From a virus (lineage: Duplodnaviria; Caudoviricetes), in IMG/VR virus record IMGVR_UViG_3300028805_000060, positions 64,001 through 128,000 of that record: 64,000 nucleotides of DNA; one strand, given 5' to 3'. Below the pieces are notes generated by a model. It did not search any database. It was given only the letters and a program-made list of their open reading frames with translations, and had not been told where the DNA came from. The translations under genes and the position numbers were made by a program. Of the stretch, positions 7,521 to 47,100 are shown in pieces (position 1 is the first letter of the stretch; each line of letters opens with the position of its first letter).

Positions 7521-10500
7521 TTAATTTCTTCGTCTTCTATATCTGATCTCTAAAGTTCCATCTGAATGAACATCTTCAATTAACCCTACAGTTCTTGGAT
7601 AATTAGATGATCTATCTGTTCTGCAAACAAACATATTTTCTCTTCTGAAACCATATACTATAATTTTAGTTCCTCTTTTTAGCCAAGACTGCTCAATTAC
7701 AACTTTCTTTTTAGTGGCAGGATCTATAGAACTAATTTTTTGATTATAAATGTTAAAAATATTAGAATACATTTTTACACTTACAATTCCATATACAGTG
7801 GATAAAGTTATGATATGTTTAGTTTTGTCTGAATCAGTAACAGTTCCTGCAATAGCACAATAGAAAGTATTATCATCACTTGGATTTTCATTTAATTCAT
7901 TAAAATTCCAAATATTATAATATTCATTATTAGTTCCTGCAAGTTCATGTTTAGAGTGATAGAAAGACATTGTAGACATTTCCCATGTAGATTCAGTGCC
8001 AGAACAATATTTTGCAAATAATTCTTCAGAAAATTTATTTCTTTCAAAATCTGCAAACAATTGTCTACCATTCTCTGTATTTAAAAAGCTCATTAATCTT
8101 TCAATTTTTTCTTTATACACTCTATCAAAAGCAGACATTTTTACCCAAATAGATCCATCTGAAAGATAACCAAACTCATTTTTAGTTATATTAAGAGATC
8201 TTTCAATATAATTTGAGAAAAATTTACATGCTAGCTCTGCAGAAATTATATATCTACGATTTTGATTATCTGAACATTCTTTATCCAAATATTTTTTATA
8301 TTTATAGAAACGAATTTCAATCTCATATTCTTCTAAATTCATACCTAAATTCAAAGCCTTTTGAATATTGGCTGTAGTTAATTTAGCTTTCACAGGGAAT
8401 TGATTTTCAGATAAAATTGATAAATATTTTTTAATAATAAATAAACGACTAATTTTTTCTACTTCATCAAAACAGCCTGCTTTAATTAATCCGATCATTT
8501 GAACAGGAGTTACTGAAACTCTATTTAAAAAATCTTCTATAGAAGAGAAAGGTCTCTTCTTAATAATATCTTCGTATAAAGAATCGCTTACAACGTTAAT
8601 AGCAGCTAAACTATAAATAATACTGAAATTCTTTATATCTGGAATAAAATCTTCTTCTGCAGTATTGATATTAGGGAGTTCTATCTTTACTCCACTGTGC
8701 TGTGCATCATCAATCGCTTTTGCAATTTTACCATAGTTTGGAGCTGTACTCTTAGATTTCTTTTCATCTGAAGAATCCTCTTCTTCTGATGCATCATTCT
8801 CTGCTTTATTATTAAGATCTATTTCAACTTCGTCTTCATCATCAGAATCTTCTGAAAAACTATCTATAGAATTGCCTGCATTTATACATAAACAAGCACA
8901 TTGCCAATATAAAGGATTGTAAAAATAAGCTAAATTAAGTTCTTGTAAAGCAATCAAAGAATAAGATATTCCGTGCGCTAAATTAAAACTATAACCTAAT
9001 TGAGGAACTATCATTTTATCCCATACATATTGTCGGAACTCTTGCCTTCCTCCTGGGTTTGAAAAATAATGTTCTTTAAGAGCTTCGATTTCGTCAATAT
9101 GCTTTTTAGCAACTGTTTTTCTTGCTTTATCAGAATCTTTCAAACTGAAAGAAGAAATGCCTGGATCCATTAAAATTCTCATAAGATCTTCTTGAGAATA
9201 AGCAACGCCATATTTATCAAGAACATATTTCTCTAAAATTTTCTTTTCATTTTCTGTTAAATTATAAGAATCCATTTCTTCGTACCAAAGATTAATGTTA
9301 TTCTTGAATCTAACATATCTATCTACTGGTGATTCATCTCCAGGTTCAACCTGTAGTCTAATTAAACCATTTACAGCTGATAATTCAGCTACGGAATGAG
9401 GTCTCATTTTATTAACTCCTACTTTTCCTACTGAAGTATCTAACTGGAATATATCACTATATTTATTATCATTCAAGTTATCCCACATTTCTTGATTATC
9501 ATAATGCAATACACTTGGATGAAGATATTTATTATATGTTTCTCTTAATGAACCTTGCCATGTGATTGTTCCATCTTTTAAAAGAAGTTCACACGCTTTC
9601 ATTAACTTTGATTCAGCTTCAGTTCTTAGTAAGTCAAATTTTAAAGCACCCATATCATCAGAATCATGCATATTAAAAGCTGTAATCGGAGTCCCGTTTG
9701 GAGCTGTCATTAAACTATTTTGAGAGAGGAAACCATTCGTAAAAATATAAACTGCAGAAGCATGTATACTTGGATTCATTGATAATCCTTCTATCTTTTT
9801 AACTGCTTCAAAAACGCCAGGATATTTTTTTAATTGATTCTCAAATCCAGGAACAGGTTCATATCCTTTTTCAGAATCTCCTTCAAGACAATCTTTTAAA
9901 GTATATGTAATACCTCTTTTTGAAGGAACTAAAGAAGTTAAATTTTGAGCATCATCATTATTATATCCAAGACCTTTCATAACTGTTAAAATTGCAGCTT
10001 TTAAAGATTCTGTTTTAAAAGTAGCGCAATTTAATACGTTATCTTCTCCAAAATATTCTTTAAGAAGTTTAAGGATCTCTTCTGTTTTGTCAGGTGAAAC
10101 ATCTATATCAATATCTGGTAAAGCATCTGCTCTAGCCTTATTTAAGAATCTGAAGGAAGGAATGTCATAGTCTAAAGGATTAACTTGCGTAATTCCTATA
10201 ATATAGTTAATTAAGAAACAAGCAGCACTTCCTCGTGCAACACCTAAGAAAGATACTTCCCAACAGATGTTGACAATTTTTTGAACAAGATTCAAATATG
10301 CACTAATATCTTGTTTTAATTCACCACTAATATAGAGAATTACATCCAACTCTTCATTAATTCGAGATGCAATATCTTTGGTAATTAAAATATTCTTTTC
10401 AATAATTCCTTTTTCAATAAGATAAATTAAGTATCTATTTTGTTCAACTGAACTATAAGCAAACTCTTTTATAAAAGGAAATTCTTCATACCAATCTTTT

Positions 10501-21808: not shown

Positions 21809-24800
21809 TTATCTCTTATTTTTTGTAAGAGAAACTCTTTCTCTGATAGAACGAACGAATGCGTCCGCATCAAAGCTTTCATCAGCTGCAACATTCATTG
21901 TAAGATTTTCAACATGGAATGATTCATCATTAACTGCTGAATTATTTCGTAAATTATCTAATGCTTTCGCTGAATTTAATCCTCTTAAGATATCAGGAGT
22001 CATTTCTCCTAATCTCCAAAGATTTGTTGTAATATCTGATGGAACAATACCTGTCTTAGAAGGTAAAGCTGTTAGAGTTCCTTGTGGTGTAACAATAGCT
22101 TCTGTACCAAATTCATTTAGAAGAGATAAACCACCAGCTGAAGATAGAGAACCTATAGAATATTCTATTGGCTTTAAATTATAAAATTTACCATTTTTAT
22201 CTTTATAAATATACTCTATCTCTCCATTAGCTGCTTTTAAGAGAGTCTCTTTACCAATTCATTCATTCGGGAAAGAACCTTCTTTAAATATTTGTTTTGC
22301 TTCTCACTTTTTTCATGCTGGTAATTGTGTCCACCCAGATGAAGGAATTTCATCCCCAGGAACTACACCCTCATAGAAAAATCCTTCTCCCAATGAAATA
22401 TCATTGATTAGATAATCTTTATAATCATCTGATAAACTATCCCCAATTATATAAGGTTGTCCATCTATCACGATAGGTTTTAAAGAGCTTCCAAAACGAC
22501 TTAAATCTCATCTTGCTGTAGTACTTGCATTTCAACGACCTGGAGATTTTAATATAGAATTGAAAAGAGTATCTTCTCCAAAATGTTCTTGTATCTTCCC
22601 TCGAGTTTCTTCTGAAAGATTTTTATCATTATAAATATCTCGAATTGTATTTGCTGCTTGAGCTCTATTCGTTTCATTTTGCTTCCAGTCTCTAGTAATA
22701 CTTAAAGCTCTTGAAATATTACTCTCTACAGCTGCATAATTTTCTCCTTCGGTAAATTTTTCTTCTGTATCTTGATCAATAGATTTATTATAATGTTCTT
22801 TAATATTTTCAAGAATTCCTAAAATAGAACTAGAAGAATCCGCTCCTATAACTTTTTTCGTTTCTTCAACGACAGCTTTCAGTCCTTCATAATCGGCGTC
22901 TTCTTTCCATTTAGTGAGAGAATCCTTAATTGATTGAAGTTCTGTAATTTGAACATCTAATTTTGAAATAATTTTTTCATTCTCGATATCTTCTAAAGCT
23001 TTTTGTTTTTCAAGAATATTTCCTTGATCGGCTTCATATACGAAACCCAATCCTTCTCTTCAAACTCTCTTCTTTTCTCTTTGTGCATTTTCAAGATCTA
23101 TTCTAGCTTTAATTAATTTGTTCTCATACTCTCTTTCTTTATTAACTTTTTGAATTTGATCTTTTTGAGCATTTAAATTAGAAATTTGATGATCCAAATC
23201 TTTACTTAAATAGTCTAGAGTTAAATCCATTAATTCATTTCACTTATCAGAAACTAAATCTAAACTATCTAAAATGTCGGTAGTTTCCTTTTTAATTGTA
23301 TCTAATTTTAATTCAGTTCCATCATCATCAAGTACTAATCCATTTCAGCTGTTTATCCAATCTATAAATTGTTTTCAAGTAGAAATTCCCATCAAATTTG
23401 TTCTTTGCATTATTTGATTTTCAAAAGAAGTATCATCTAATCCTGACGCTGTTTGAACTTCTTCAATTAATTTATCTCGATGTTCTCCAAAGAACTTTGG
23501 ATTACCAAGAACGTCTTCAAAAGAAGATTCATTATAGAGTTCAATTGTTTTAGTATATTTATCAATAAATTTACTTGCTAATTGTTGGCTATCTCCTAAA
23601 TATTCTATTAATTCAGGATAGTTCTTCACAATATATTCTTGGAATTTAAATGCATCAGTAAAAATTTTCGAAATTGAACTTATTCCTTCACTTAGTTTAT
23701 TTAGATTTTCTGTCAAAGCAGTAGTACCAGCATTTAATTCTCCTAAAGTAAAATCTTTTCAATATTCGACGATGTCAGAACCTTCTTTTAATGAATCTGT
23801 TGGTGTCTTTAAAGCAGAAGCAAAATCTTGTAAAAGTTCTTCATCCTTCTTTATAATAGCTTTATTCAAAGTGAAACTATTTCCTGTTCAGAAATCTCTT
23901 AAATTGTCGTTTTGTCTAATTGCCTTTGTAAACAATTCATCATTTAAAGAGTCCCTTTCTATCCCTAACGTATTTACCATGTAATCATTAATAACTTCTT
24001 TTAAGCCATTCCTTGAATACATAGAATATAAGTAATCTTGAGAAGCATCTTTTAATCAGATATTATTTTTATCTTGAATTGAATCAATTGCGGTTGAATA
24101 TCCTTCTTCAACAACCTTTGAATAATCATCTTCTCTCTTTTTTATATCAAACTCTAAACCAGAAATTATTTCTTCAAGTAATTCCTTAGTATATTCTTTA
24201 TTTGTGAAAACATGGGCAGTATTATCATCTAGTATCCAGGTGCTAAATAATGTATCAAAATGATTCAAAGCACCGTTTAAATGATCTAATACAGACTCTA
24301 AAGAGTCGCCGCCAACAAATTGCTTCACAAATCTAGCAGCTAATAGATGTCCTTGCCCTTTCCCATTTAAATTTTCTTTATATTCGGACAATTTAGTTCT
24401 TTCATCTAAAGAGAATTTGTCTTGAACCCCATTGAAATTTATTAGAGATTGTGCTGCTGTTAATGCATTATAAATTTTTGATATATTTTGAGAATCTAAT
24501 GAGAGATTATCTATTATTGATTTTAAAGAACCAGTATCTTCTACTTCTAATCCATTCTTATTCAAATATTTTACAAACTGCTCTCGGAAATCTTTCTCTG
24601 TATCCTTATCAGAAGAAACAGATTCTACTATTTCATTGACAGCATCATTCCACTTTTTAAAATCTTCACTTGTCCATTCATTAACACCTTTTACTGAATC
24701 TGCAATACTGTCTAAAGAAGATTTTATTTCATCCATCTTTTCTAAGATTTTCTCATTTCTTTTAATAGCTTGGAGTCTTGCAATCTTTTCTTCTTCAGAT

Positions 24801-27800
24801 GGCAAGTGTGCTGCTAAGAAAGGGAAAAACTCACTCACAAGAGCTTGGACAAGCATTCCTACCAAAGGTCCTCCTAAAGCTGTAGCAATTCCTGTTGCTG
24901 CTCCAGTAACAACACCAGAAAGAATTTTTGTATCAGCTGACATTTCATAAGTCTCACCGTCTTGTTGAATTGTTTTTGGAGCCGATAATCCTGCCATAAC
25001 ACCCGCTCCAACACCTGCGAGAGCTCTTGTGGCTATATTTGCACCCGATAACTTATTCTTTGCTTTAGGTTGTCCTTCTCCTTGAGGAGTCGAAGTATTA
25101 TCAGTTCCTCCTTGTGATGTACTAGATTGATTAGAAATTCCTTTATTACCTGTTTGTTGAACAGTTGTTTGAGTCTTTCCAGTAGAAGCCTTGTTCGAAC
25201 TTACTTCTCTATAAATTCCTTGAACATTTTCATCAAGATTTTGAACATGAACTCCAAAAGAAGTACTTAATTTTTCAGTCTGCTTATCATAGAAATTTCC
25301 TCCAAGGAGTTTTGCCTTTACCCCCTTTGATAATCCAGAGCCTCCTGTGAGTCCAAAGAACGAGCCTGCCATTTTTAATAATCCAGGAATCTTGTAAGTA
25401 TTTAACATAGCAAATAAAGTGCTACCATAACGGATAATTTTAGGAAGAGCTTTAACTAGCCCTGTAGAAACTTGAAGTATGCTTTTGAGAAAAGCAGCAA
25501 TATCTGCATTATTAGCTAATTCTTCTCATGCTGCTTGCAATTTCTTTGTCCAAGCCTCAATTGATTCTTGATACGCTTCATACTTCCTTTGAGCTGTTCC
25601 TGCTGATTCCTCAGACGTTTTTAAAAGCTCATGATATTTATCCATATTATCGAGTAATACTACAAATGAATTTCGTTGTCTTGTCAAAATTGTTGTTAAT
25701 AACCAAACGAAAATTGGCTATTTTTACCCGTTTTTCGGGCAGTAGAACATTTCTGTCTACTCTGCATTTTTGTCAAAAATTTAGATTATATATGCAGATC
25801 GGACTATAACTTCACCCTTTCGGGGAGGAACGTTTAGTCTCTACGGATTCTATTGTGTTATTTTTATTTTAAGAATTGTAATATTTTATTTTGTCAACTA
25901 CCATTATTGATATCTTCTGGGTATAAAGCAAGACATTTTACATTATATTTATGAATTAAATCTAATTTGCATTTTGTTTTCATGTCATAATTTTTATATC
26001 CTGTCAGACCAAAATATTCAATATATTTGTCATTTATTTTCCAGTCGAATCTTTTTTCTCCACATTCTTCTTTAGGAATCACTTCTTTATATAAAGCTTC
26101 TTTTTGGAATTTAAAATTATTATCTATTAAGAAATTAGAAATAATCTCTTCAGTTTTAGATAAACAAACATTGTTTAATTTATCATAAAATAGAGTATCA
26201 CTCATAATTAAATGTTGATAATTTTCTCTTTTTATTCCAATTAATTCAAAAGCTTTTGTCACACTACCAAAATACCTTCTAAAAGTTATTTCAGAAGGAA
26301 GTCCGTGCAATTGAAACTCTGCTATCAAAGGAGTTCTTTCTAATTTACGCACCACTTCTTCTAACTTTTCTAATAATACTTCTTTATCATACCATTTTAA
26401 TCCTTTCTCAGAATTCTTTTTGAGACCCAATCTTTTTGCCTGAGTTACTAATTCTTTTGGGGTTAAATTTGGATAATATTTTTCATGAAGATATTTATTA
26501 GTATATTTAGGATATAATTCTCTAAATTGTTCTTCGTCTTCTGTATGGATAGCATTTAACTTACGATAAGTAGGTAGATTATGTTCTTTTAATATTCTAC
26601 AAATAAAATCACTACTTCTTCCTAATTTTTCTGCCATTCTGGTTGGAGTCATAACTTGGTAATTATTTAAAATAAAATCAAGTTCTTCTTGCTTTAAATG
26701 ACATTTATTATAAATATCTCTTGAGAGATGATACCTTGATGCATAAGTAAGAATACTTGTTTTACTTTTTGTTCCTAAAATTTCATATAATTCTTTCCAA
26801 GGAGTATTCGGATAATATTGCTTTAGAAGTTCTATTTTTTCATCTGTTCATCTAAATCTGGCCATATTATTACCTCCTTTCTTTTTATAAATAACACAAT
26901 AGTCTTTCCTCGGTATTGCCCTTCTCAGGGGTTTCACCGATATGGTTCCTTTCTATTTAATTTATATAGCGTAAAATCATAGATTTCTCTATGTTCAGGC
27001 ACAAGACTTATCTACCTGCAAACGCTGTTGCAATTGCATTCTTAGAAACGTTATCTAATGTTATCCATTTTTCTGATAAATCTTCTAAGATATCATCAAA
27101 ATCTCTGAATTGTAAATTAGTATCTCTGACTGCAATTCCAATCTTTCCTAGAACTTTTTCTACATCGTTTAAATTACCTTCTGTATCAGAAGAATCATAG
27201 TCAGTGCTTAATTCATCAAAGGCCCCTGCTTTAACTGCACCATAACGAGATATAATTGTTTTCAATGCTTGTCCTACAGAGCTACCTGACTGTTGAGAAA
27301 CGTCGGCAATTGTAGCAACCATAGCTGATGCTTGGTCAATATTAATCCCGTTTAATCCTGCTAAGCTTGCAAATTGGCTTAAACCTGTTGCGATTTCTCC
27401 AGCTGAAGTTGCCGCTTTAATATCTATTGCTGTTAATTTATCAACAACTGACATTGCATCAGTAGCTTCTAACTTAAATCCTTTTAAACTGCTTGTTACT
27501 TTATGTTTAGTAGAGTCGTTAATTCTACCGTCTTACGACCTCATAGTTTCCCATGAGAACTGACTATATCATCACCCTTATTATAAGGGGGCACTTACTT
27601 CCATTCTACTTAGAATGTACTCTCTCTCGAGATAGTCGATGGGGCTGGATCCTAAAAGGATCCCTGCCTGCTGATTGCCCAATCTTTACTACTTCACTTC
27701 TGACTGAATCTTGCGATCTCAGTTAGTGAGTAAAGCTCTAAGGGTTTTCCAGCATATCAAGTGCTTTATTTTTCTAAATATTACTATTTAGCAGACCTAT

Positions 27801-30800
27801 TTTTATATTGTTAAGTCTTTTGTAGCAGTATTAACATCTAACATACCTAATTTACTTAAATACATAGATGCTGTGATTAATTTATTTGTTTCGCTAACAG
27901 AATAACCTTGTCTGAGCCACTCGTTCGCGCTTGTTGCAACTTCAGTTGTTGTTGCACCAATCTGCTTTGCAAGTTGTGCATAATCATTGATCATTTGCTT
28001 AGCTTGATCTGCATTAGCTCCTGATACAATACGGAGATTAGTCATAGCTTTATCAAGTTCTTTTGCTGCTTGAACAACTTTTTGAATACTACGACGAACG
28101 GTTTGCATTACTTTTGAAACAAGACCAAATCTCATGAAGTTTGTAAATGTTCTATTTAGTTGCTGTGATAATTGTCCCCAGAAAGTACTTTGACCTTTAT
28201 TTCTGACATTTTCTCCAGCTAAAGCTAATTTAAGAGATTTTTCTGCTTTATCTTTTATTTCGTTTAATTTGTCTGTACTATAGCCCTGTTTCTTATAGCT
28301 TTCTTCTGCAAGTTTGACTCTTTCTTCAGAAGCTTGTAAAGATTCTTTTATCGCCTCTTCTTGCTCTCTTAGAGAAGCCAATTCGACTTCATCCATAGTC
28401 ATAGCTTGACGATTTTTATTACTCTTTAACGAGAGAGCGTATCGATTATACTCTCTATAATCAGCTTTTAATCCACGTAAAGCTGCAGCTTCTTCTCTGT
28501 TAACACCAGCTTTTTCTTCTGGAAATACAGATTCTTTTATATCAGAAACCATTTTTTCAGCTTTTCACTGTTCTTTAGCATAAGCTTCGTCTTCATCAGT
28601 TCAGCCTTTAATGTCTTTGATCTTTTCTTTACTACGATTTAGTTGTGCTCTTCTAGCTGTTAAAGAATCTATTTCCTCTTCATATTCTTTTTTCTTTTTA
28701 TTTTCTTCGTCAGCCGCTTGCAAATCTCTATTGATTTCTTTTTGTTCTTCTGTTTTTGCTTCTTCCTTTAACTTATTAAGCTCGTCAATTCTAGCCTTAA
28801 CACTTTCTAGTTCATTAAAGAAAGCATAAAATTCTTTTAAATCATTCTTAGTAAGTTTTGTATCTTTTGAAACACTCTCTTTTGGTTTCGAAGAATTGGC
28901 CATGTTTGCAATTTTAAATTCAGCTGGAAGATTCTCTAACTTTGGACGAAGTTCCTTCTCAATTAATTCTTGAGCTTTAGGATCATCAATATTTCCTATT
29001 GCTATTAATTGCGCCATCAAGTTCTCAATTCCAAGTTTATTTAAAGAACTCATGTTTGCTTGCCAAGATCTTCCTTGTCCAGAGTCTGCAGTTCCTAATA
29101 TTTCTAAAGTAAGATTACTAAGATCATTGTTTTTCAAAAATTCAAACTCTTCTTTAGTAAGATCTTTTTTAGTAACTGTTCGATATTTTTCTCCATAAGC
29201 AGCAAGCATATCATCATAAGTATAATTCTTATTCTTAAATTCTGCCTGCATTTGCTTAGCAAGAGTTGCATACATTCCTACTTGGGCAATATATTGAGGC
29301 TTTAAAATCTCATCTATAGTTTTCCCTGTTTTAATATCAGACAAATATACTTTTCCGTCTTCTCCTATCGTGAATAAGTCAGAGAAACCATAAGAAGTAC
29401 TAGGATTACCATCTATATTATGAGAAGAAGCGAGAGGAGTTTCTGCTCCTATAAATTTTCTTCCCTTTGTTAATTTTAAAATATTTTGGATATTTTGATC
29501 TGTAACTGAACTAAATGTTTTAGAACCAGTAGCAGACTCAATAATGTCCATTATTTCTAATAACTCTTTAGGTCCACCTAATCTTTCTTTCATTAAAGAG
29601 AGTATATTTTCTGCTTCAGTAAGTTGGTCACCCTTATATTTATTAGATTTAACGCCTGTACGAAGTTCTCTCAAAATATCTTCTCATGAAGCATTATCAC
29701 GATCTACGCTACCTAAAGATAAATTCGCAGCATTAATTCTCTCACGAATATCTTCTATTCCACTTGCAGAACTAGACCAATATTTTTCATCTATTCTTTT
29801 TCGTTCATCTTCTGATAAACTATCATATATTTTCTTAAAATCATCTAAGGATGTTATATCTTTAAAAGCTTCTTCATTGGAACGGATATTAATTAAATTT
29901 TGCCCAATATTAGCCAATTTACCTCTGAATGTAGGGTATAAAATTTTTAAGAATTCATCTCTCTCCCTTTCAGAATCAAAACCTAATAACTTATCAGTTG
30001 ACCCTGTATTTTTATATCCTATAATTCTTTCATAAAATTCATTTTCTAATGATTCTGCTAAAGATGCTCCTTTAAATGGGAATAATATTTTTGTTAAACC
30101 AGTAACAGAGTTTGTCTTTCCAGTACCTCCCTGGTCTACCATATCAGAAACTTTTTGATAATTATCTATTCCTTCTTTGATACCTTTAGTAAGGTTATTG
30201 ATCTTAATAGTAAGGTTATCAATGCTCTCGTTAGCTCCATTAGCTGCTTTTTGTAAATTTTCAAAACTTTGCTTACTTTCATCGTTTATAGTTATATCTG
30301 CAACTGAAGCATTTCCTGTTCCAGGTAAATTTCTTTCATTTGTTTTTTTATTATAGAAATATGGATTAGAAACAATTTTATATAAATCTTGTTCTCCGTA
30401 AGATCCTAAATCTTTATTAAAATCTCGTAAGATATTACCAAATGATTTAAAAGAATATTTTCCGTCACTGGCATCTAGCCACTTTTCATCCCCAGTATAT
30501 TGATATAAAATAGCAGCAAGATTTTTTAATCTTTTTTTATCAAATGCTACATCCCCTGAAGTATCTGCGATGCCTCATTTTTCTAATACTGCTCCTAATC
30601 TACTTCACCCTTCTTTAGTTGTAAAAGTGCTTTCATCTTTTAAGACTTCTTCTATTTCGCTACCAATATTAGTTGTAATTTCTTGTAAAAATTTTTCATC
30701 ATCAAGAGAAGCATCAATACCAAGCGCTTCTCCTAGAGCTGTTTTATCTCCTTTATATCGATTTAATAATTTTTCAAAAACTTTTTTCGAACTAATGGCA

Positions 30801-33800
30801 TCTTGAGAAAGAGAAGTAAAAAATTCTGAAGCATACTGTGCTCCAACAGAAGTTTGGAATCTTTCATTACCTTTTATTGAATTAAGGAAGCCTTGTCTGA
30901 TATTATCAAAAACACCAATTTTATCACGATTTTGTCTTGTAGCGAGTTCTGCTGCTGAAGCAGCTAAACTATTCCCACGAGAAGCAAAATCGTCTAAAGT
31001 AATGATGTCAGAAGAAGTTTTATCTTCTTCATATAATTTTTGATTTTTCTTTTCAAAAGACTTCATTATTTTTGTTCGTTTTCTAAAAAGTTCTAATTGT
31101 TTTAATAAAACTTCTGTATAAGCTTTTGCTTGCTCTTCTGTAATATTACCTGCAGCAAATTCTGATCTGACATTTGCTAATGCATTTGCAATTGTATCTC
31201 CATCAACGTCGGCATTAAGAATATCCATTGTCTGTGAATCGACTTGGATTGCGTCACCTAAATTTCTCTTACTAGAGGCAAAAAGCTCTGTAATAGGAAG
31301 GTTCTGGCCATTCAATAGAGGGAAACGAGTTAAGAACTGAAGAAGTCCTTTTGCGTTTTCTTTGTCGAAACCTTCTTTATCAATATCGACGGCATCTATT
31401 ATCTTTTCGATAACAGACTGTGGAGTATCATCTTCTGAAATTTTTATACCAAGACGATCTGCCTCTCTATACAAACCTTTTTTGTATCCTTCTTCATCTT
31501 CTCCTTCTGCTCGTTTGAGCATTTGTCTTAAACGTTCAGTAGAAACTATTCCTACAGCTCCCCTAGAAAGAATACCAGAATCTCCTCCCGAAATAATTCT
31601 ACTAAAAGCAGAATGAGATAAACGAGCATTATGAAGAGACTTGTATTTTTCAGATTTTTTATTATTAACAGAGTCTCACATATCCTTAAGTGCCGTATAA
31701 GCACTTTCGTTCATTTGTTCCTGAATTCTCTCTTTTTGTTGCCTAGTTGTAGAACCCGCTATTTGAGTTAAACCAGAACGCTTAGAGTGAATAAGACCTT
31801 CCATTGCCTTAATATTTTCTAAAGCAAGGAATCCTTCTGCATTATCTTTTGGAACAAGATATTGTGTTCCATCTTCATCTTCTACTATCTCAAATGCATC
31901 TGAATAGTTTCCAAATTGAATTGCATCACCTTTTATATTTACTCCATTTTCATCAGTATAATTATAAGCATAATCTAGGTAAGCATCTTTACCTTCAGAT
32001 TGAGCTTTATATACCTCTCCGAATATTGAGTTTTGAAAGTCTTCTAGACGGAAACCTCTTCTCCCATTAAAATCTACTTGTTCTAGACCTGCATGCCCTG
32101 CAATTTTTTCATTGCTTCAAGGAATAATAACTCCCTGCTCACTTGCTATTTCGTCGGCAGTCTTTTGACTCCCTCTAATAATGTCATCAACAAGATTTAC
32201 CGATCTTCCTCCTTCTTCTTTCGAAAGATCTAAGTTATTTTCATACACTGTTTTTAGAACATTCTTTGCAACAGAAGCTGTTTCTTTAGAAATTAATCCT
32301 GCTTTGACTGCAGCATCAGCTTCTCTTTCAAAGTCATTTATCATTTTATAGCCCATATTAACAGGACGACCACCTTTTCGAGTCGGATCAAAATATGTAG
32401 CTACATCCTGAATGTTCCATCTTTCAATACCAATAACTCCACCGTTACTCTTAGTTTGTATTGAATCTTCTGTAACTTTGAATTGAGAATCTTCGCCAGT
32501 CGCATAGACAAAAGCCTTTATAAAATCAAAACCAAAATTTTGGCTAAGTAAATTCTTTTCCTCTTCTGACAAAGAATCAAAATTTTTATTTTCTTCAATA
32601 ACTTCTTTATAAATTTTGTTAAAATTTCCAAAAATAAAACTACCATCTTCTGACATGCCTTTAAAATATTTATCAACAAAATCACTAGGTTTTATTTTAA
32701 GTTTATTTAAAATTGGTTTTAGTTTTTTTGTTGCTTTCATAAAAGCTTCGGTGAAGTCAGTTTTGGCTTCATTGTATTTTTGATTTCTTCCTTCTTCACT
32801 TTCAGCATTTCTTATTGCTTGAGATCTTATAGAAGTAAATTCATTAATAATAGAAGGAATATTTTCTCCTAATTTACGAGAACCTGTCTTAAGTTCTGTA
32901 ATCATATGCACATTCAAAGAACCATCTCGATTAAAAATATCTTTAGGATCAAATCCAGCTTTAATTAGAGCTTGCGCTAAAATTGCATTTTTTACAGTAA
33001 TAACTACTCCATGAAGTCCTGATTCTGCAGCTATTTTTTCTCCTGTTTTTAATTGAGCATATTCTTTTACAGAAGCAATTACCTCTCCTTCTTCATTTTT
33101 TTCGAGATCTACATGATATTTGTCACCTTTTCCTTTTAAGTGAAGAACACTTCTTAATGCTGCTTGATCAACATAATCTTTTTGACCCTGAGATAATTTT
33201 TCATCTAATTTAGTAATATATCTATCAATTTTTTCGAGCTCTTGATCATTCATTTTAGATCTTTCTTCTGGATTTAAATATCTTTCAATTAAAGGGTCAT
33301 CTTTCAGATCCTTTTTATTCATTTTAAGAAGAAGCTCTTTTTTCTTTTGCTCTATTTTTTTTAGTTTATCTGTATCTAATTCAACTTTATCGATTTCTCT
33401 TAAAGAAGTGAGGATATTTTTATTTCCTTTTCGCCCTGAGGTATGACTAATTTGTTCAGATACTAAAACTTGTTCATAATCTCTCCCAAAAGAAAAATCA
33501 CTTTCTGGAAAGATCTCATCAAAAAGTTTTCCTTTCTCCTCTTCAGACATTTTACCATTTTTATCTAAAGCCTTTTTCATGTCTTTCATTCTATGAGCTT
33601 TTTGTGCTGCTTGATTCCAAATAGCTGTAGGAATTTTTGATTCACCCTTAATAAAAGACTCTCTCATTATTTTTCTAAGATCTTGTCCGCTCGTATGATC
33701 ATTTGTTTTCGCATGACGAAGACCAACACCTTGTCCAAGACTTTGAAGCTCTACTCCTGTATTTTTTGCATATTCATATGTTTGAGCTGAGACATTCCCA

Positions 33801-34930
33801 ACATCAATTTTAGCAGAGCTCTTTTTTCTACCAATATTTTTTAATCCCATATTACCAGCTTTCGCGCCTCTGCTCCCTCTTTGAGCAAATTCTTGACCTG
33901 GAGTAAGAGAAGAACCATGACCGATAGAGATATTACCTTTTGACAAAGCTGTTTCTGCTATGTTACTAAAAGTCACAGGGGTTATCTTTGCCATTTTTAA
34001 TAAATCTGTTTTCATCCCAGCCCAAGCAGGCGATTTAGTAATATAATCATATTGGGAATTACCTTCTATTCCTTTTATAATTTTATCTGCTTCTTTGGGA
34101 TTAGTAGCAGCTAAAAAATAAATTGATTTTAGATTAGACTCAATTTGTCTCTTATAATAGATACTGTTTTCTTTATTGTTATATTTAGCAATTTGGTTAG
34201 AATATTCTTCTTGGATTTGCCTGATACGTACTCCAAAATTAAGTCTTTGTGTTTTTAATAAATTTTCATTAATTTTAGTTATATCAATACCTAATTCTTT
34301 AGAGAGCTCTTTTTTAGCCTCATCCATTTCTGCTTTAGTAGCGACTAAAGTATCAACGTTATTTATAGAAGAAGCGGGATAAAAATATTTTCTAATATCA
34401 TCCCTTTTTGATTGAGGTAAAGAACCTGTGCTTCTAATTTCTTTATTAGCTTCTCTAATCATTGCTTGAATTTTGCCACCAGGTTTACTTATAAGTTCTG
34501 CTAATGTATCAAATTCAGCTTCTTGAAGAGTACACCAACCTTCCTCTCCTGTTCTTTTACTTCTATAGTAAACGAGACTATTAGCTTCTTGGTGTCCGTT
34601 TTTAGAAATTATACCTGCTCCTGTCTCTAAGGCAAACCCATATTCAACTCCTAATTCAGGATGCCCTTTTGGATAAAATACTAATTGATCTTTACTATCA
34701 TCAATTCCACAATCTCAGTTAAGCGATCCAAGATAAGAATATATATCATTAAGAGAGCGCTGAACAGAAATAGCTCTAGAAATAGAGTTCTCTTTAATTT
34801 GAGTTAATTCACTTTTAGTTAGCTCTTCTCCCAGAGTAATATCTAAACGAGAAGAAAAATATTCACCTGTATAGCTTTTATACTTTTCACCAAGTATTGA
34901 TTGTATATCACTTATATTTCTTATAGCCAT
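21809..34930 (-). CDS. giant tape measure protein fused to an N-terminal two-barrel RNA polymerase-like region and a PD-(D/E)XK nuclease domain; 3 exons (34930-27814, 27498-27014, 25684-21809), ~3825 aa, code 4
   Basis: all fragments share one frame once TGA=Trp and two introns are removed; TP901-type TMP core (ELDKAMTNLRIVSG, EWLRQG, VVDKLTAID, GQALKTIISR, AFAGTRQRN); KKRVWREGLGFVYEAD; NADVDGD at 31196-31216. Confidence 0.85.
25685..27013 (-). mobile_element. group I intron with homing endonuclease ORF (1329 nt)
   Basis: 5' exon CAGGU pairs with GCCUG (U.G wobble); P10 GUCUUGU pairs with 3' exon ACAAGAC; P 26932-26941, Q 26908-26917, R GTAGAGACTA 25835-25844, S AAGTTATAGTCC 25801-25812; terminal G at 25685; splicing restores AFAG|TRQRN. 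Confidence 0.9.
25864..26865 (-). CDS. intron-encoded homing endonuclease (N-terminal helical repeats plus C-terminal PD-(D/E)XK/Vsr-like domain), 333 aa, code 4
   Basis: AAGGAGG RBS; MARFR-TGA-TDEKIELLKQYYP; repeat YDKEVLLEKL...TP...PSEITFRRYFGS; SKTEEIISNFL...RFDW...IEYFG; flanked by the CTATTGTGTTA/TAACACAATAG stem. Confidence 0.75.
27499..27813 (-). mobile_element. group I intron without ORF (315 nt)
   Basis: P1 GACU|UA pairs with UAGGUC (U.G at the splice site); P ATGCTGGAAA 27746-27755, Q AATCAGCAGG 27667-27676, R CATCGACTA 27633-27641, S GATATAGTC 27562-27570, P3 GCACTT/AAGTGC; terminal G at 27499; splicing restores KDLTSSLKGFKLEA. Confidence 0.92.
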
Positions 34931-44100: not shown

Positions 44101-47100
44101 CTGTAACCTCATCTGTCACATCGCTTCCAGTCATTGTAAATGTACTTGCACTTCTTACTGTATAATTTTGAACGGTTCCATCGTTAATAGAATTAATTCA
44201 GCCTGCAGTTGTTACACTTGCTGTAGGCGTAATTTTAAAGTATTGAGAAGCAACAGATGTAGGTGTTGTACCAGCTGAACTTAATGTTGCGTAAGTCGCA
44301 CTTGGAGTAGCTTCCCCATCTTTTATTTTATAATTTATAGCACTACCATCACTAATTGATGAAATCCAACCAGCAGTTCCGACCGATGCTTTAGGTGTAA
44401 CTGAAAAGTACTGATTGTTCATAGCAGTTGTAGAACTTAATGCTGAGCTGCTTCCTGTTACTGTAGCACTAGGAGTAGCAGATCCAGAACCAACTGTAAC
44501 TTTAGAAAGAACTTTACCAGATGTTGGTGTTATATCACCAGCAGCAGAAGCAGCTTTTGTTTCTAAGGTTATAGAAACTTTTCCAGAACCGTTATGATAA
44601 CCAGCTGGAACTGTATATGAAGTAGTTGAAGTATCTAATGTTGCACTTACTGCTCCATTATTTGTCATTGTACCTGTTTGTTTTGTATATGAATTTGAAT
44701 AGAATGTTTTTCCTGTTAAAACATCTCCTACTGCTGCATCTCCTGCTAAACTAGTTTGAGCAGCCGCTTGATAATATTGATCTGCTGAATAGTATCCTTT
44801 ACCTATTTTAATTTGACTACCAGCATTTATTGTTCCAGAAGAAGTTCCACCAGAAGTGTTATTTGTAATAGTTCCCGCAGCAATCTTACCTACTTTGGTA
44901 GCAGTACCTGCTTGAACTGCACCTGAAGAAGAAAACCACCCTGATGTACCAGCTGCAATAGTACCCTTAACTTTGGCACTAATTGGATAATATCCACTTG
45001 AAAGCGTTCCAACTGTTACAACATCTGTGACATCACTACCTGTCATTGTAAAAGTAGAAGCGCTTCTTACTGTAGCTGTTGCATAAGCAGAAACATCAGT
45101 TGAAGTAGCTTTTGTTAATTCAATATTTCCTGATGGTCCTGCTGGTACTTTATAATATCTATCTCCATTATAATAACCAGAAGTTAATTTATAAACTCCT
45201 CCTAAAGTTAAAGTAGTATAACTAGATGGAGTATCAGTAGTAGTTCCAAATTGAGACATATTCAATGAGCTTGAACCAGAAACAGTAATTGTTCCAGCAG
45301 TACCTGTACTTACATAACCTGCACTAACTGTTGGTGTAACGTCTTGAGTTTTACTTACTGTAATATCAAATTTTAAAGTTTCAGGATTAAATACTGGTGT
45401 ACTTGGATTAGCTGTAATTGTTGTTGCTGGAGTTGTAGCAGATCCTGTACCAACAGCAGCTTGTGCTTGTGCATCAGTGATAGTTAGTGAAACAGTCCTA
45501 TTTGTTGCACTTCCAGCTGTTCCTGAAGAAATATAACCAGCACTTACAGTAGGAGCTGGAGCTGAAACACTACCAGTTACTGTAAATTTTTTCTTATTTG
45601 TAGAATCTTGTGTATGTGAAACATAAGTTATAGTACCAGCATTACCCGTAGCAGTTCCCGTTGCTACTGCATTAATTTTATAATATTTACCAGAAGTATT
45701 ATAACCTACAGGAAGGTTAAGATACTGATCTGCTGTACTTGGTGTAACGCTAGCTATAGAAGAATAATATTGTGCTGCTGAACTAGCAGTTGTAGTTGGG
45801 AATGTAAGAGTTGTCGCTGTGCTCTTATAATATTTATCTTGATTATAATACCCTGCTCCAATTTTTACATAGTATCCATAATTAACATCTGTACTAGTTG
45901 CTCCCTCTGGAAGAGAGCCAACAACAGAAGATGTTCCGCTTGCAACTGTACCAACAGTAGTATTTGCAGGTACATAACCAGCTTTACTTGCTTTAGTTTT
46001 AACAGAAGCTCCACTTACTTCAAATTCAGCTGCTGCTATTGGGAAGTATTTAGTTGCACTTGTTGCGCTATAACTTACACTTCTTGTTGCAAAACTATCA
46101 TTTGTAGGAGTATATCCTGCCGTTGTTATTTTTGCTGTTTGCGTTTGAGCTGTTGCAGAAGATGATCCTGTAAATGCTAAATAATAACCACTTGTTGGTT
46201 CTGATGTTGCTTTTGTTCCAACAATACCAGAAATATTAACACCAGCATTTGAGCCATCTATAGGATAGATACTTACATCATTTGTTCCTGTTAAATTACT
46301 TCCTGTAACCGATCCTGTTGCAGCTTTTAAATAAATAGTACTAGAATCAGACGCACTTGTCCCTGTAGCACTCTTTGTTACTTCAGTAGAAGTAGCTGAT
46401 TTATTGCCAGAGCTTGCACCACTTGCAGAAGCACCAGCAGTAATACCTTTACTAACAGAAGCAGAACCACCAGTTGCACTAGCACTAGCTGTAGAATAAC
46501 CAGATGCCGCAGAAGCAGAACCACCAGTTGCACTAGCACTAGATGTAAAATAATAACTTGTAGCAGTATCACTTACACCAGCAGTCATTCCTGTTTGAGA
46601 AGCACTTGCTGTTGCAGTTCCGCCAGTTGCTGTCGCATTTGGTTGTTTTGCAATACTTGCAGAAGCACTAGCAGTTCCACCTGTAGCAGTTGCACTAGCC
46701 ACTGGAATATAAACATTAGTACCTTCCTTAACTGTAGTTGTTGAAGAACTTTCACTAGAATAGTTTGAAGTTTCAGTTGCTTGACCTATTGTTGTAGAAT
46801 CAGCACCTAAAGAAACAGTTTCAGAAGCAGAATCAATTATCTTAGTAGAGTCTCTTGATGGTAACCATCCAGCAGTTCTTGTATCATTAACTTGTGCTCT
46901 AGTCACTGTTTGTGAGAAAGCAGCCCTTGTAACTGCTGCTCTTGTAACTGAACCTCTACCTTTTGCCTTTGCTTCTTTATCAACTGTAGCCTCTGGATTA
47001 AATGTAGCATAATTACCAGATGTAGGCTTAGTTGTAGTTACACCATAAGTAGAATCAGTTGCTCCAGATACAGTATAATTTCTTGTAACTGAAGGAGTAA

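Follow-up and report, generated by a model that had tools for sequence, protein, structure and literature searches.

Two unrelated group I introns predicted in the tape-measure gene of an uncultured phage that reads TGA as tryptophan

We analysed 64,000 nucleotides (nt) of the IMG/VR virus record IMGVR_UViG_3300028805_000060, corresponding to its positions 64,001 to 128,000 and called here the window. The minus strand between 34930 and 21809 very probably constitutes a single tape-measure gene of 3825 amino acids (aa), whose core, described by PF10145 (PhageMin_Tail), is broken by a pair of self-splicing group I introns that are unrelated to each other and designated I1 and I2. Their assignment to group I is supported by sequence, structure, covariation and the exact restoration of the conserved tape-measure domain. 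A first-pass annotation of the same DNA had proposed that two introns interrupt the tape measure; the two introns stand, with the correction that the exons make up a 3825-aa gene which is visible only under genetic code 4.

The record, a metagenome assembly, is a phage genome of 144,870 bp with a completeness rating of 100%. The G+C content is about 30% and the minus strand of the window holds every long open reading frame (ORF). TGA is read as Trp phage-wide, and the giant ORFs (2375, 1292, 1926, and 2272 aa) appear only under code 4. A tRNA with anticodon UCA, unusually long at 100 nt, is encoded outside the window at record positions 45455-45554, and the in-frame TGA at 25526-25528, within AAWEELA, occupies a position at which a homolog has Trp. 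Translation table 11 gives four separate ORFs in the region, and halves of PF10145 are found in two: one that ends at 27803 covers profile positions 2-62, and another (27454..27008) covers positions 77-201. Joining 34930..27814, 27498..27014, and 25684..21809 yields 11,478 nt, a multiple of 3, which encode 3825 aa under code 4 with the sole stop at the end. The parts of the gene are the following.

27814..34930, minus strand: exon 1, 2372 codons plus one base, 8 in-frame TGA (code-4 ORF list, spliced frame)
End of exon 1, minus strand: final ~56 aa, start of PF10145 (profile positions 2-62)
27499..27813, minus strand: I1, 315 nt, group I of IA-like build (P7.1 and P7.2 present), without ORF
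27014..27498, minus strand: exon 2, 485 nt, 161 full codons, body of PF10145
25685..27013, minus strand: I2, 1329 nt, group I, P7.1/P7.2 absent, P6 loop holding an ORF
21809..25684, minus strand: exon 3, 1291 codons plus the stop, 13 in-frame TGA (code-4 frame)

Exon 2 was compared with PF10145 and scored 66.2 bits, above the gathering threshold of 33.2, and its top tblastn matches were annotated phage tape-measure proteins. Pfam returned no family for exon 1 (2372 aa) or exon 3 (1291 aa) at E up to 0.01. At the ligated junctions the peptides read KDL/TSSLKGF and AFAG/TRQRN, the slash marking the joint. The 5′ ends of exons 2 and 3 were read and showed neither a start codon nor a ribosome-binding site, and stops fall 3 codons into I1 and 1 codon into I2. 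Considering the missing start signals together with these early stops, the full-length protein, and hence tail assembly, would depend on both splicing events. The spliced protein has about three times the usual length of a tape measure.

The first-pass annotation had named failure of intron-less homologs to align contiguously across the junctions as the outcome that would refute it. The spliced core was therefore compared by tblastn with fetched loci (numbered L001 onwards), the junctions lying after core residues 300 and 462. The tape measure of Bacillus phage Stahl is a single frame that runs gapless over both junctions (core residues 182-571), and the same was found in MT835936 (residues 182-566) and in the IMG/VR relatives L006 and L007 (residues 196-596 and 179-545, each in a single frame). 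In L007 junction 2 is also uninterrupted at the nucleotide level. The refuting outcome did not arise, and the proposal of two introns withstood this check.

Both introns share with the group I introns of RF00028, of which the td intron of phage T4 and the DNA polymerase intron of Bacillus phage SPO1 are examples, the P1-P9 layout, the P, Q, R, and S elements, the U.G pair at the 5′ splice site, and the terminal G. The U.G pairs, the P/Q/R/S cores, the terminal G, and the frame-restoring junctions, all claimed by the first-pass annotation, were found where it had placed them on the minus strand. The elements of I1, all on the minus strand, are listed below.

Splice sites, minus: 5′ exon ends with U 27814; last intron base G 27499 (sequence read)
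27793..27797, minus: guide GGUCU, forming P1 with exon AGACU (27818-27814), U.G at the splice site
27562..27763, minus: catalytic core (RF00028, family alignment, covariation, fold)
27763-27759 / 27596-27592, minus: P3
27754-27749 / 27674-27669, minus: P4
27744-27678, minus: P5 and its extension
27668-27643, minus: P6
27637-27633 / 27566-27562, minus: P7
27631-27620, minus: P7.1, hairpin between P7 and P3′
27617-27602, minus: P7.2, hairpin between P7 and P3′
27589-27575, minus: P8
27500..27557, minus: 3′ part with P9 (27557-27540), P9.1 (27537-27529), and P9.2 (27528-27510)

When I1 was scanned alone (336 nt, 27490-27825), RF00028 was matched with 58.1 bits and an E of 2e-14, above the cut-off of 50; the match spans 27822..27540 on the minus strand and the full model (positions 1-253), and an RF00028 search of the whole genome of the phage returned it again. 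The minimum-energy fold recovers P1, P2, P3, P4, the P5 extension, P6, P7.1, P7.2, P8, P9, P9.1, and P9.2, with a z-score of -5.7. In the classes of Michel and Westhof, hairpins P7.1 and P7.2 between P7 and P3′ mark subgroup IA; I1 has this feature, as the first-pass annotation had noticed.

A 23-nt motif from the P4-P5 region of I1, with 18 specified bases, is present in more than 108 viral contigs. Forty-five sequences of this family were aligned with MAFFT, and RNAalifold independently recovered P4, P5, P5a, P6, and P7 from the alignment. Pairing was observed in 98.1% of the cells, compared with 83% after shuffling and 32-50% with the partners slid; doubly changed cells numbered 195 against 56 expected, and 10 pairs carried double changes. 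The covariation score was 0.41 (0.11 in shuffles, 0.03-0.09 when slid). This signal comes from P5, P5a, and P6; P3 and P8 lie outside the scoring on the 45-sequence alignment, and P4 and P7 are invariant in it, partly through how the sequences were selected.

The closest counterpart of I1 was seen in L008 (IMGVR_UViG_3300028797_000506), where an intron of 1.4 kb lies in the identical codon phase (S-L/T-S) with a core that is 76% identical. Its P1 is GAGCU/GGCUC instead of AGACU/GGUCU, which amounts to three compensatory changes. Near its 5′ end it holds a 355-aa ORF with DUF7487 and a helix-turn-helix, readable only with TAG as Gln. Since this homologous intron has an ORF at the same site, I1 probably descends from a mobile intron and has lost the endonuclease. 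An intron of the I1 family is also found in L003, 33 codons upstream of the I1 site, with a guide suited to that site.

I2 is organised differently, and its elements, also on the minus strand, were located as follows.

Splice sites, minus: 5′ exon ends with U 27014; terminal G 25685 (sequence read)
26996..27005, minus: guide CUUGU-GCCUG, pairing with both exon ends
26893..26993, minus: 5′ core (relatives' alignment)
26993-26978, minus: P2
26950-26945, minus: P3, 5′ strand
26940-26936 / 26914-26910, minus: P4
26930-26919, minus: P5
26902-26893 / 25859-25850, minus: strands of P6, with the ORF between them
25864..26865, minus: ORF of 333 aa (code 4), Shine-Dalgarno sequence AAAGGAGG upstream, codons 6 and 324 being TGA in frame
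25685..25859, minus: 3′ core (relatives' alignment)
25839-25835 / 25806-25802, minus: P7
25831-25826, minus: P3′
25825-25815, minus: P8
25797-25762, minus: P9
25760-25742 and 25739-25727, minus: P9.1 and P9.2
25719-25701, minus: last hairpin

P1 of I2 has 5 bp, between exon CAGGU (27018-27014) and GCCUG (27000-26996), with the U.G at the splice site, and P10 is a contiguous 5 bp helix between CUUGU (27005-27001) and ACAAG of the 3′ exon (25684-25680). Only 3 nt separate P7 from P3′, leaving I2 without the hairpin feature of subgroup IA, and the ORF lies between the strands of P6; on both points the first-pass annotation was right. The R/S core is common to 27 viral loci, several of them without an ORF. 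Once the ORF is taken out, I2 aligns with ORF-less relatives in both halves, through P3, P4, P5, P6, P7, P8, and P9. All 6 bp of P3 form in each of six different sequence versions (seven alignment rows, two identical); P6, P8, and P9 keep their places as hairpins with differing sequences. L129, the closest relative that has no ORF, gives a full-model match to RF00028 with 47.2 bits (E 4e-11). By these comparisons I2 appears to belong to a group I family other than that of I1.

The ORF of I2 had been taken as a table-11 frame of 252 aa, which does not hold: with TGA as Trp it extends over 26865..25864 and encodes 333 aa. The canonical AAAGGAGG stands seven bases ahead of its ATG (26865). The protein has 27 full-length homologs, in which TGA codons 6 and 324 fall on conserved Trp; in 20 homologs this Trp is near-invariant or the consensus. 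Its layout comprises N-terminal helix-turn-helix repeats, a homing-endonuclease-associated repeat (PF18780 in Pfam, 38.3 bits), and a C-terminal Vsr-like nuclease fold; PHROG matches were also found. An AlphaFold (AF2) model was obtained with a predicted local distance difference test (pLDDT) of 87.6. In Foldseek the C-terminal ~100 aa of the model were matched to the catalytic domain of I-Bth0305I (3r3p) with probability 1.0, a template modelling (TM) score by target of 0.73, and a root-mean-square deviation of 2.8 Å; Vsr (1cw0) was a weaker match. I-Bth0305I is a homing endonuclease from Bacillus thuringiensis phage 0305phi8-36, where it belongs to the recA intron, so that both proteins are products of phage group I introns, but the N-terminal DNA-binding region of the I2 protein, with PF18780 and helix-turn-helix repeats, is of another type. 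According to the model, the I2 protein would fold like I-Bth0305I; membership in the Vsr-like (EDxHD) family is not claimed.

Several observations weigh against the interpretation given above. No group I match was returned by Rfam for the whole window at the gathering threshold, nor for 3.6 kb at E up to 10; we attribute the failure to detect I1 in these scans to speed filters. On the whole of I2, Rfam gave chance matches only and no RF00028, which we ascribe to the 1-kb ORF breaking the model, and L129 falls 2.8 bits short of the cut-off. The RF00028 check suggested by the first-pass annotation thus came out in favour of I1, and for I2 it gave no match with the ORF in place. In addition, P10 of I1 has 2 bp only. 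The endonuclease assignment is a fold similarity at 16% identity, and a profile of 21 homologs of the I2 protein searched against PDB sequences (E up to 1) recovered no I-Bth0305I chain. Splicing of I1 and I2 in vivo is predicted from the mechanism of the family.

Taking into account that P10 of I1 is weak and that I1 is devoid of the endonuclease gene which L008 retains at the same site, the insertions could be derived from group I introns that have lost splicing, the gene being then a pseudogene or expressed as fragments. We consider this very unlikely. No core pairing is broken and the conserved P, Q, R, and S are all preserved, the frame of 11.5 kb is open through both junctions, exons 2 and 3 have no start signals, and the record is 100% complete while a tail requires a tape measure. 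Even less probable, in our judgement, is that the insertions are mobile DNA of the free-standing kind, one being an endonuclease cassette and the other a remnant that codes for nothing, with three ORF products that assemble after translation. Free-standing endonuclease genes are known to split phage genes, and gene callers do report three ORFs under table 11; however, I1 has no ORF and yet passes RF00028, both guides are complementary to the ends of the exons, a conserved domain is cut at each break and is followed by neither a start codon nor a ribosome-binding site, and stops appear after 3 codons in one insertion and after 1 codon in the other. As the record is a metagenome assembly, an artefact or chimera was also considered and is given hardly any weight: in L008, an independent contig of another sample, exactly this site is occupied by an intron homologous to I1, in-frame junctions bound both insertions to the base, and the endonuclease protein, recorded from this contig, has its 27 homologs elsewhere.

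Other candidates were tried and rejected. A group II intron is discarded by the wrong size, the lack of a reverse transcriptase, and the presence of the group I core, and an intein by stops in all frames. With 315 and 1329 nt the insertions by far exceed what translational bypassing or frameshift could cover, and TGA read-through alone does not account for the in-frame TAA and TAG inside the insertions.

We therefore return to two group I introns within one tape-measure gene. The established group I mechanism is a two-step transesterification initiated by guanosine. Once transcribed, each intron would fold, and a free guanosine would attack the phosphate 3′ of the exon U that is paired with the G of P1; the freed 5′ exon would then attack after the terminal G of the intron, with the exons joined in frame. 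The putative endonuclease of I2 presumably cuts intron-less tape-measure alleles in co-infection, which would lead to homing. A further proposal is that splicing gates the product, a free N-terminal protein of 2375 aa or the fusion of 3825 aa, and that the I2 endonuclease is made only after the switch to TGA as Trp. This is drawn from the positions of stop and TGA codons only, and we regard it as unlikely; if it were true, the efficiency of splicing would set the ratio between the free and the tail-packaged N-terminal module.

When 50,697 phage records were searched by blastn with the region, I1 had three matches, all partial, and I2 had none. Over the whole genome the RF00028 search and a scan for the R/S core motif gave only I1 and I2. 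No nucleotide similarity was detected between the two introns. Considering this, their differing periphery, and the close relatives that are empty or have other introns elsewhere, the natural reading of the sequences is that I1 and I2 were acquired independently, in agreement with what the first-pass annotation had suggested. Among the relatives this core is a hot spot, with insertions at four places: near residue 267 (L003), at 300/301 (the window and L008), near 380 (L008, L009, and L010), and at 462/463 or at most 3 codons away (the window and L003). No core insertion was found in L001, L002, L006, and L007. The third-site insertions, roughly 80 codons downstream of the exon 2 start, lie at 4233-4520 in L008, 4243-5512 in L009, and 4234-5743 in L010, and the one adjoining junction 2 in L003 lies at 8490-9753; these show mutual sequence similarity and none with I1 or I2. 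Rfam gave no group I match on the 277-nt third-site insertion of L008, though R/S-like elements are visible in it.

L008 (2273-5051) and L009 (3638-6087), in IMGVR_UViG_3300028797_000506 and _000003, are the nearest relatives with introns, and their tape-measure cores have in-frame TAG and no in-frame TGA. Sister lineages would therefore differ in stop reassignment, with TAG as Gln in one and TGA as Trp in the other.

The 3′ half of I1, from P7 to P9.2, shares 74% identity over 149 nt with a region in the DNA polymerase locus of Shigella phage Moonfish (PQ613263), and the differences in P9.2 include compensatory ones. The Moonfish element is in another host gene and in another phage family (Schitoviridae), and it has an HNH ORF, whereas I1 has none. 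In the Moonfish annotation (1965-2634 of the fetched locus) a DNA polymerase coding sequence, an HNH endonuclease, and a second DNA polymerase coding sequence follow one another and no intron is annotated; given the homology of its 3′ part to I1, we read this gap as an unannotated group I intron.

Twin introns in a tape-measure gene had been described as uncommon in the first-pass annotation, a claim that we withdraw, as they were reported in 2008. In prophages of the Bacillus cereus group, Tourasse and Kolsto (2008, PMC2504315) described IA1/IA2 group I introns at three tape-measure sites (TMP-IVS1, IVS2, IVS3a, and IVS3b), with two introns per gene in several prophages, some copies without an endonuclease gene, P1 adapted to new sites, and different introns at the same site. 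The case presented here resembles theirs in the use of several tape-measure sites, two introns per gene, endonuclease loss, and P1 adaptation; the likeness is one of description and not of sequence or site alignment. It differs in that the carrier is an uncultured 145-kb phage with TGA as Trp instead of a Bacillus prophage, that the gene is three times longer, and that the TMP-IVS introns belong to subgroup IA while I2 is without P7.1/P7.2. Spliced introns are also known from capsid and tail genes of mycobacteriophage cluster J (PMC3706429). A TGA-rich endonuclease of a group I intron was described by Borges et al. (bioRxiv 10.1101/2021.08.26.457843) in the TGA-recoded Agate gut phages of ~150 kb, whose clade mixes codes. 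Those phages and the present one are alike in their size class of ~150 kb, TGA as Trp concentrated in late genes, relatives with other codes, and in-frame TGA in the intron endonuclease, a likeness of features and not a clade placement; the Agate intron is in an early gene, while here the host gene itself is late and recoded. A TGA-recoded phage with TAG-recoded relatives is consistent with the mixed-code Agate clade.

Introns in tape-measure genes and a TGA-recoded intron endonuclease were thus already known, and no new question is opened by the present case. It bears on annotation, in that under table 11 and without splicing the tape-measure gene breaks into many pieces when the true product would be one protein of 3825 aa. 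Rfam run on the contig with default settings detects no intron although I1 alone scores 8 bits over the cut-off, and such introns would therefore be routinely missed in phage metagenomes. With respect to the biology of these phages, an uncultured TGA-recoded lineage provides a new example of group I introns that target the most conserved stretch of the tape measure, the same core of 200 codons having apparently been struck in the lineage at four sites by at least three intron families.

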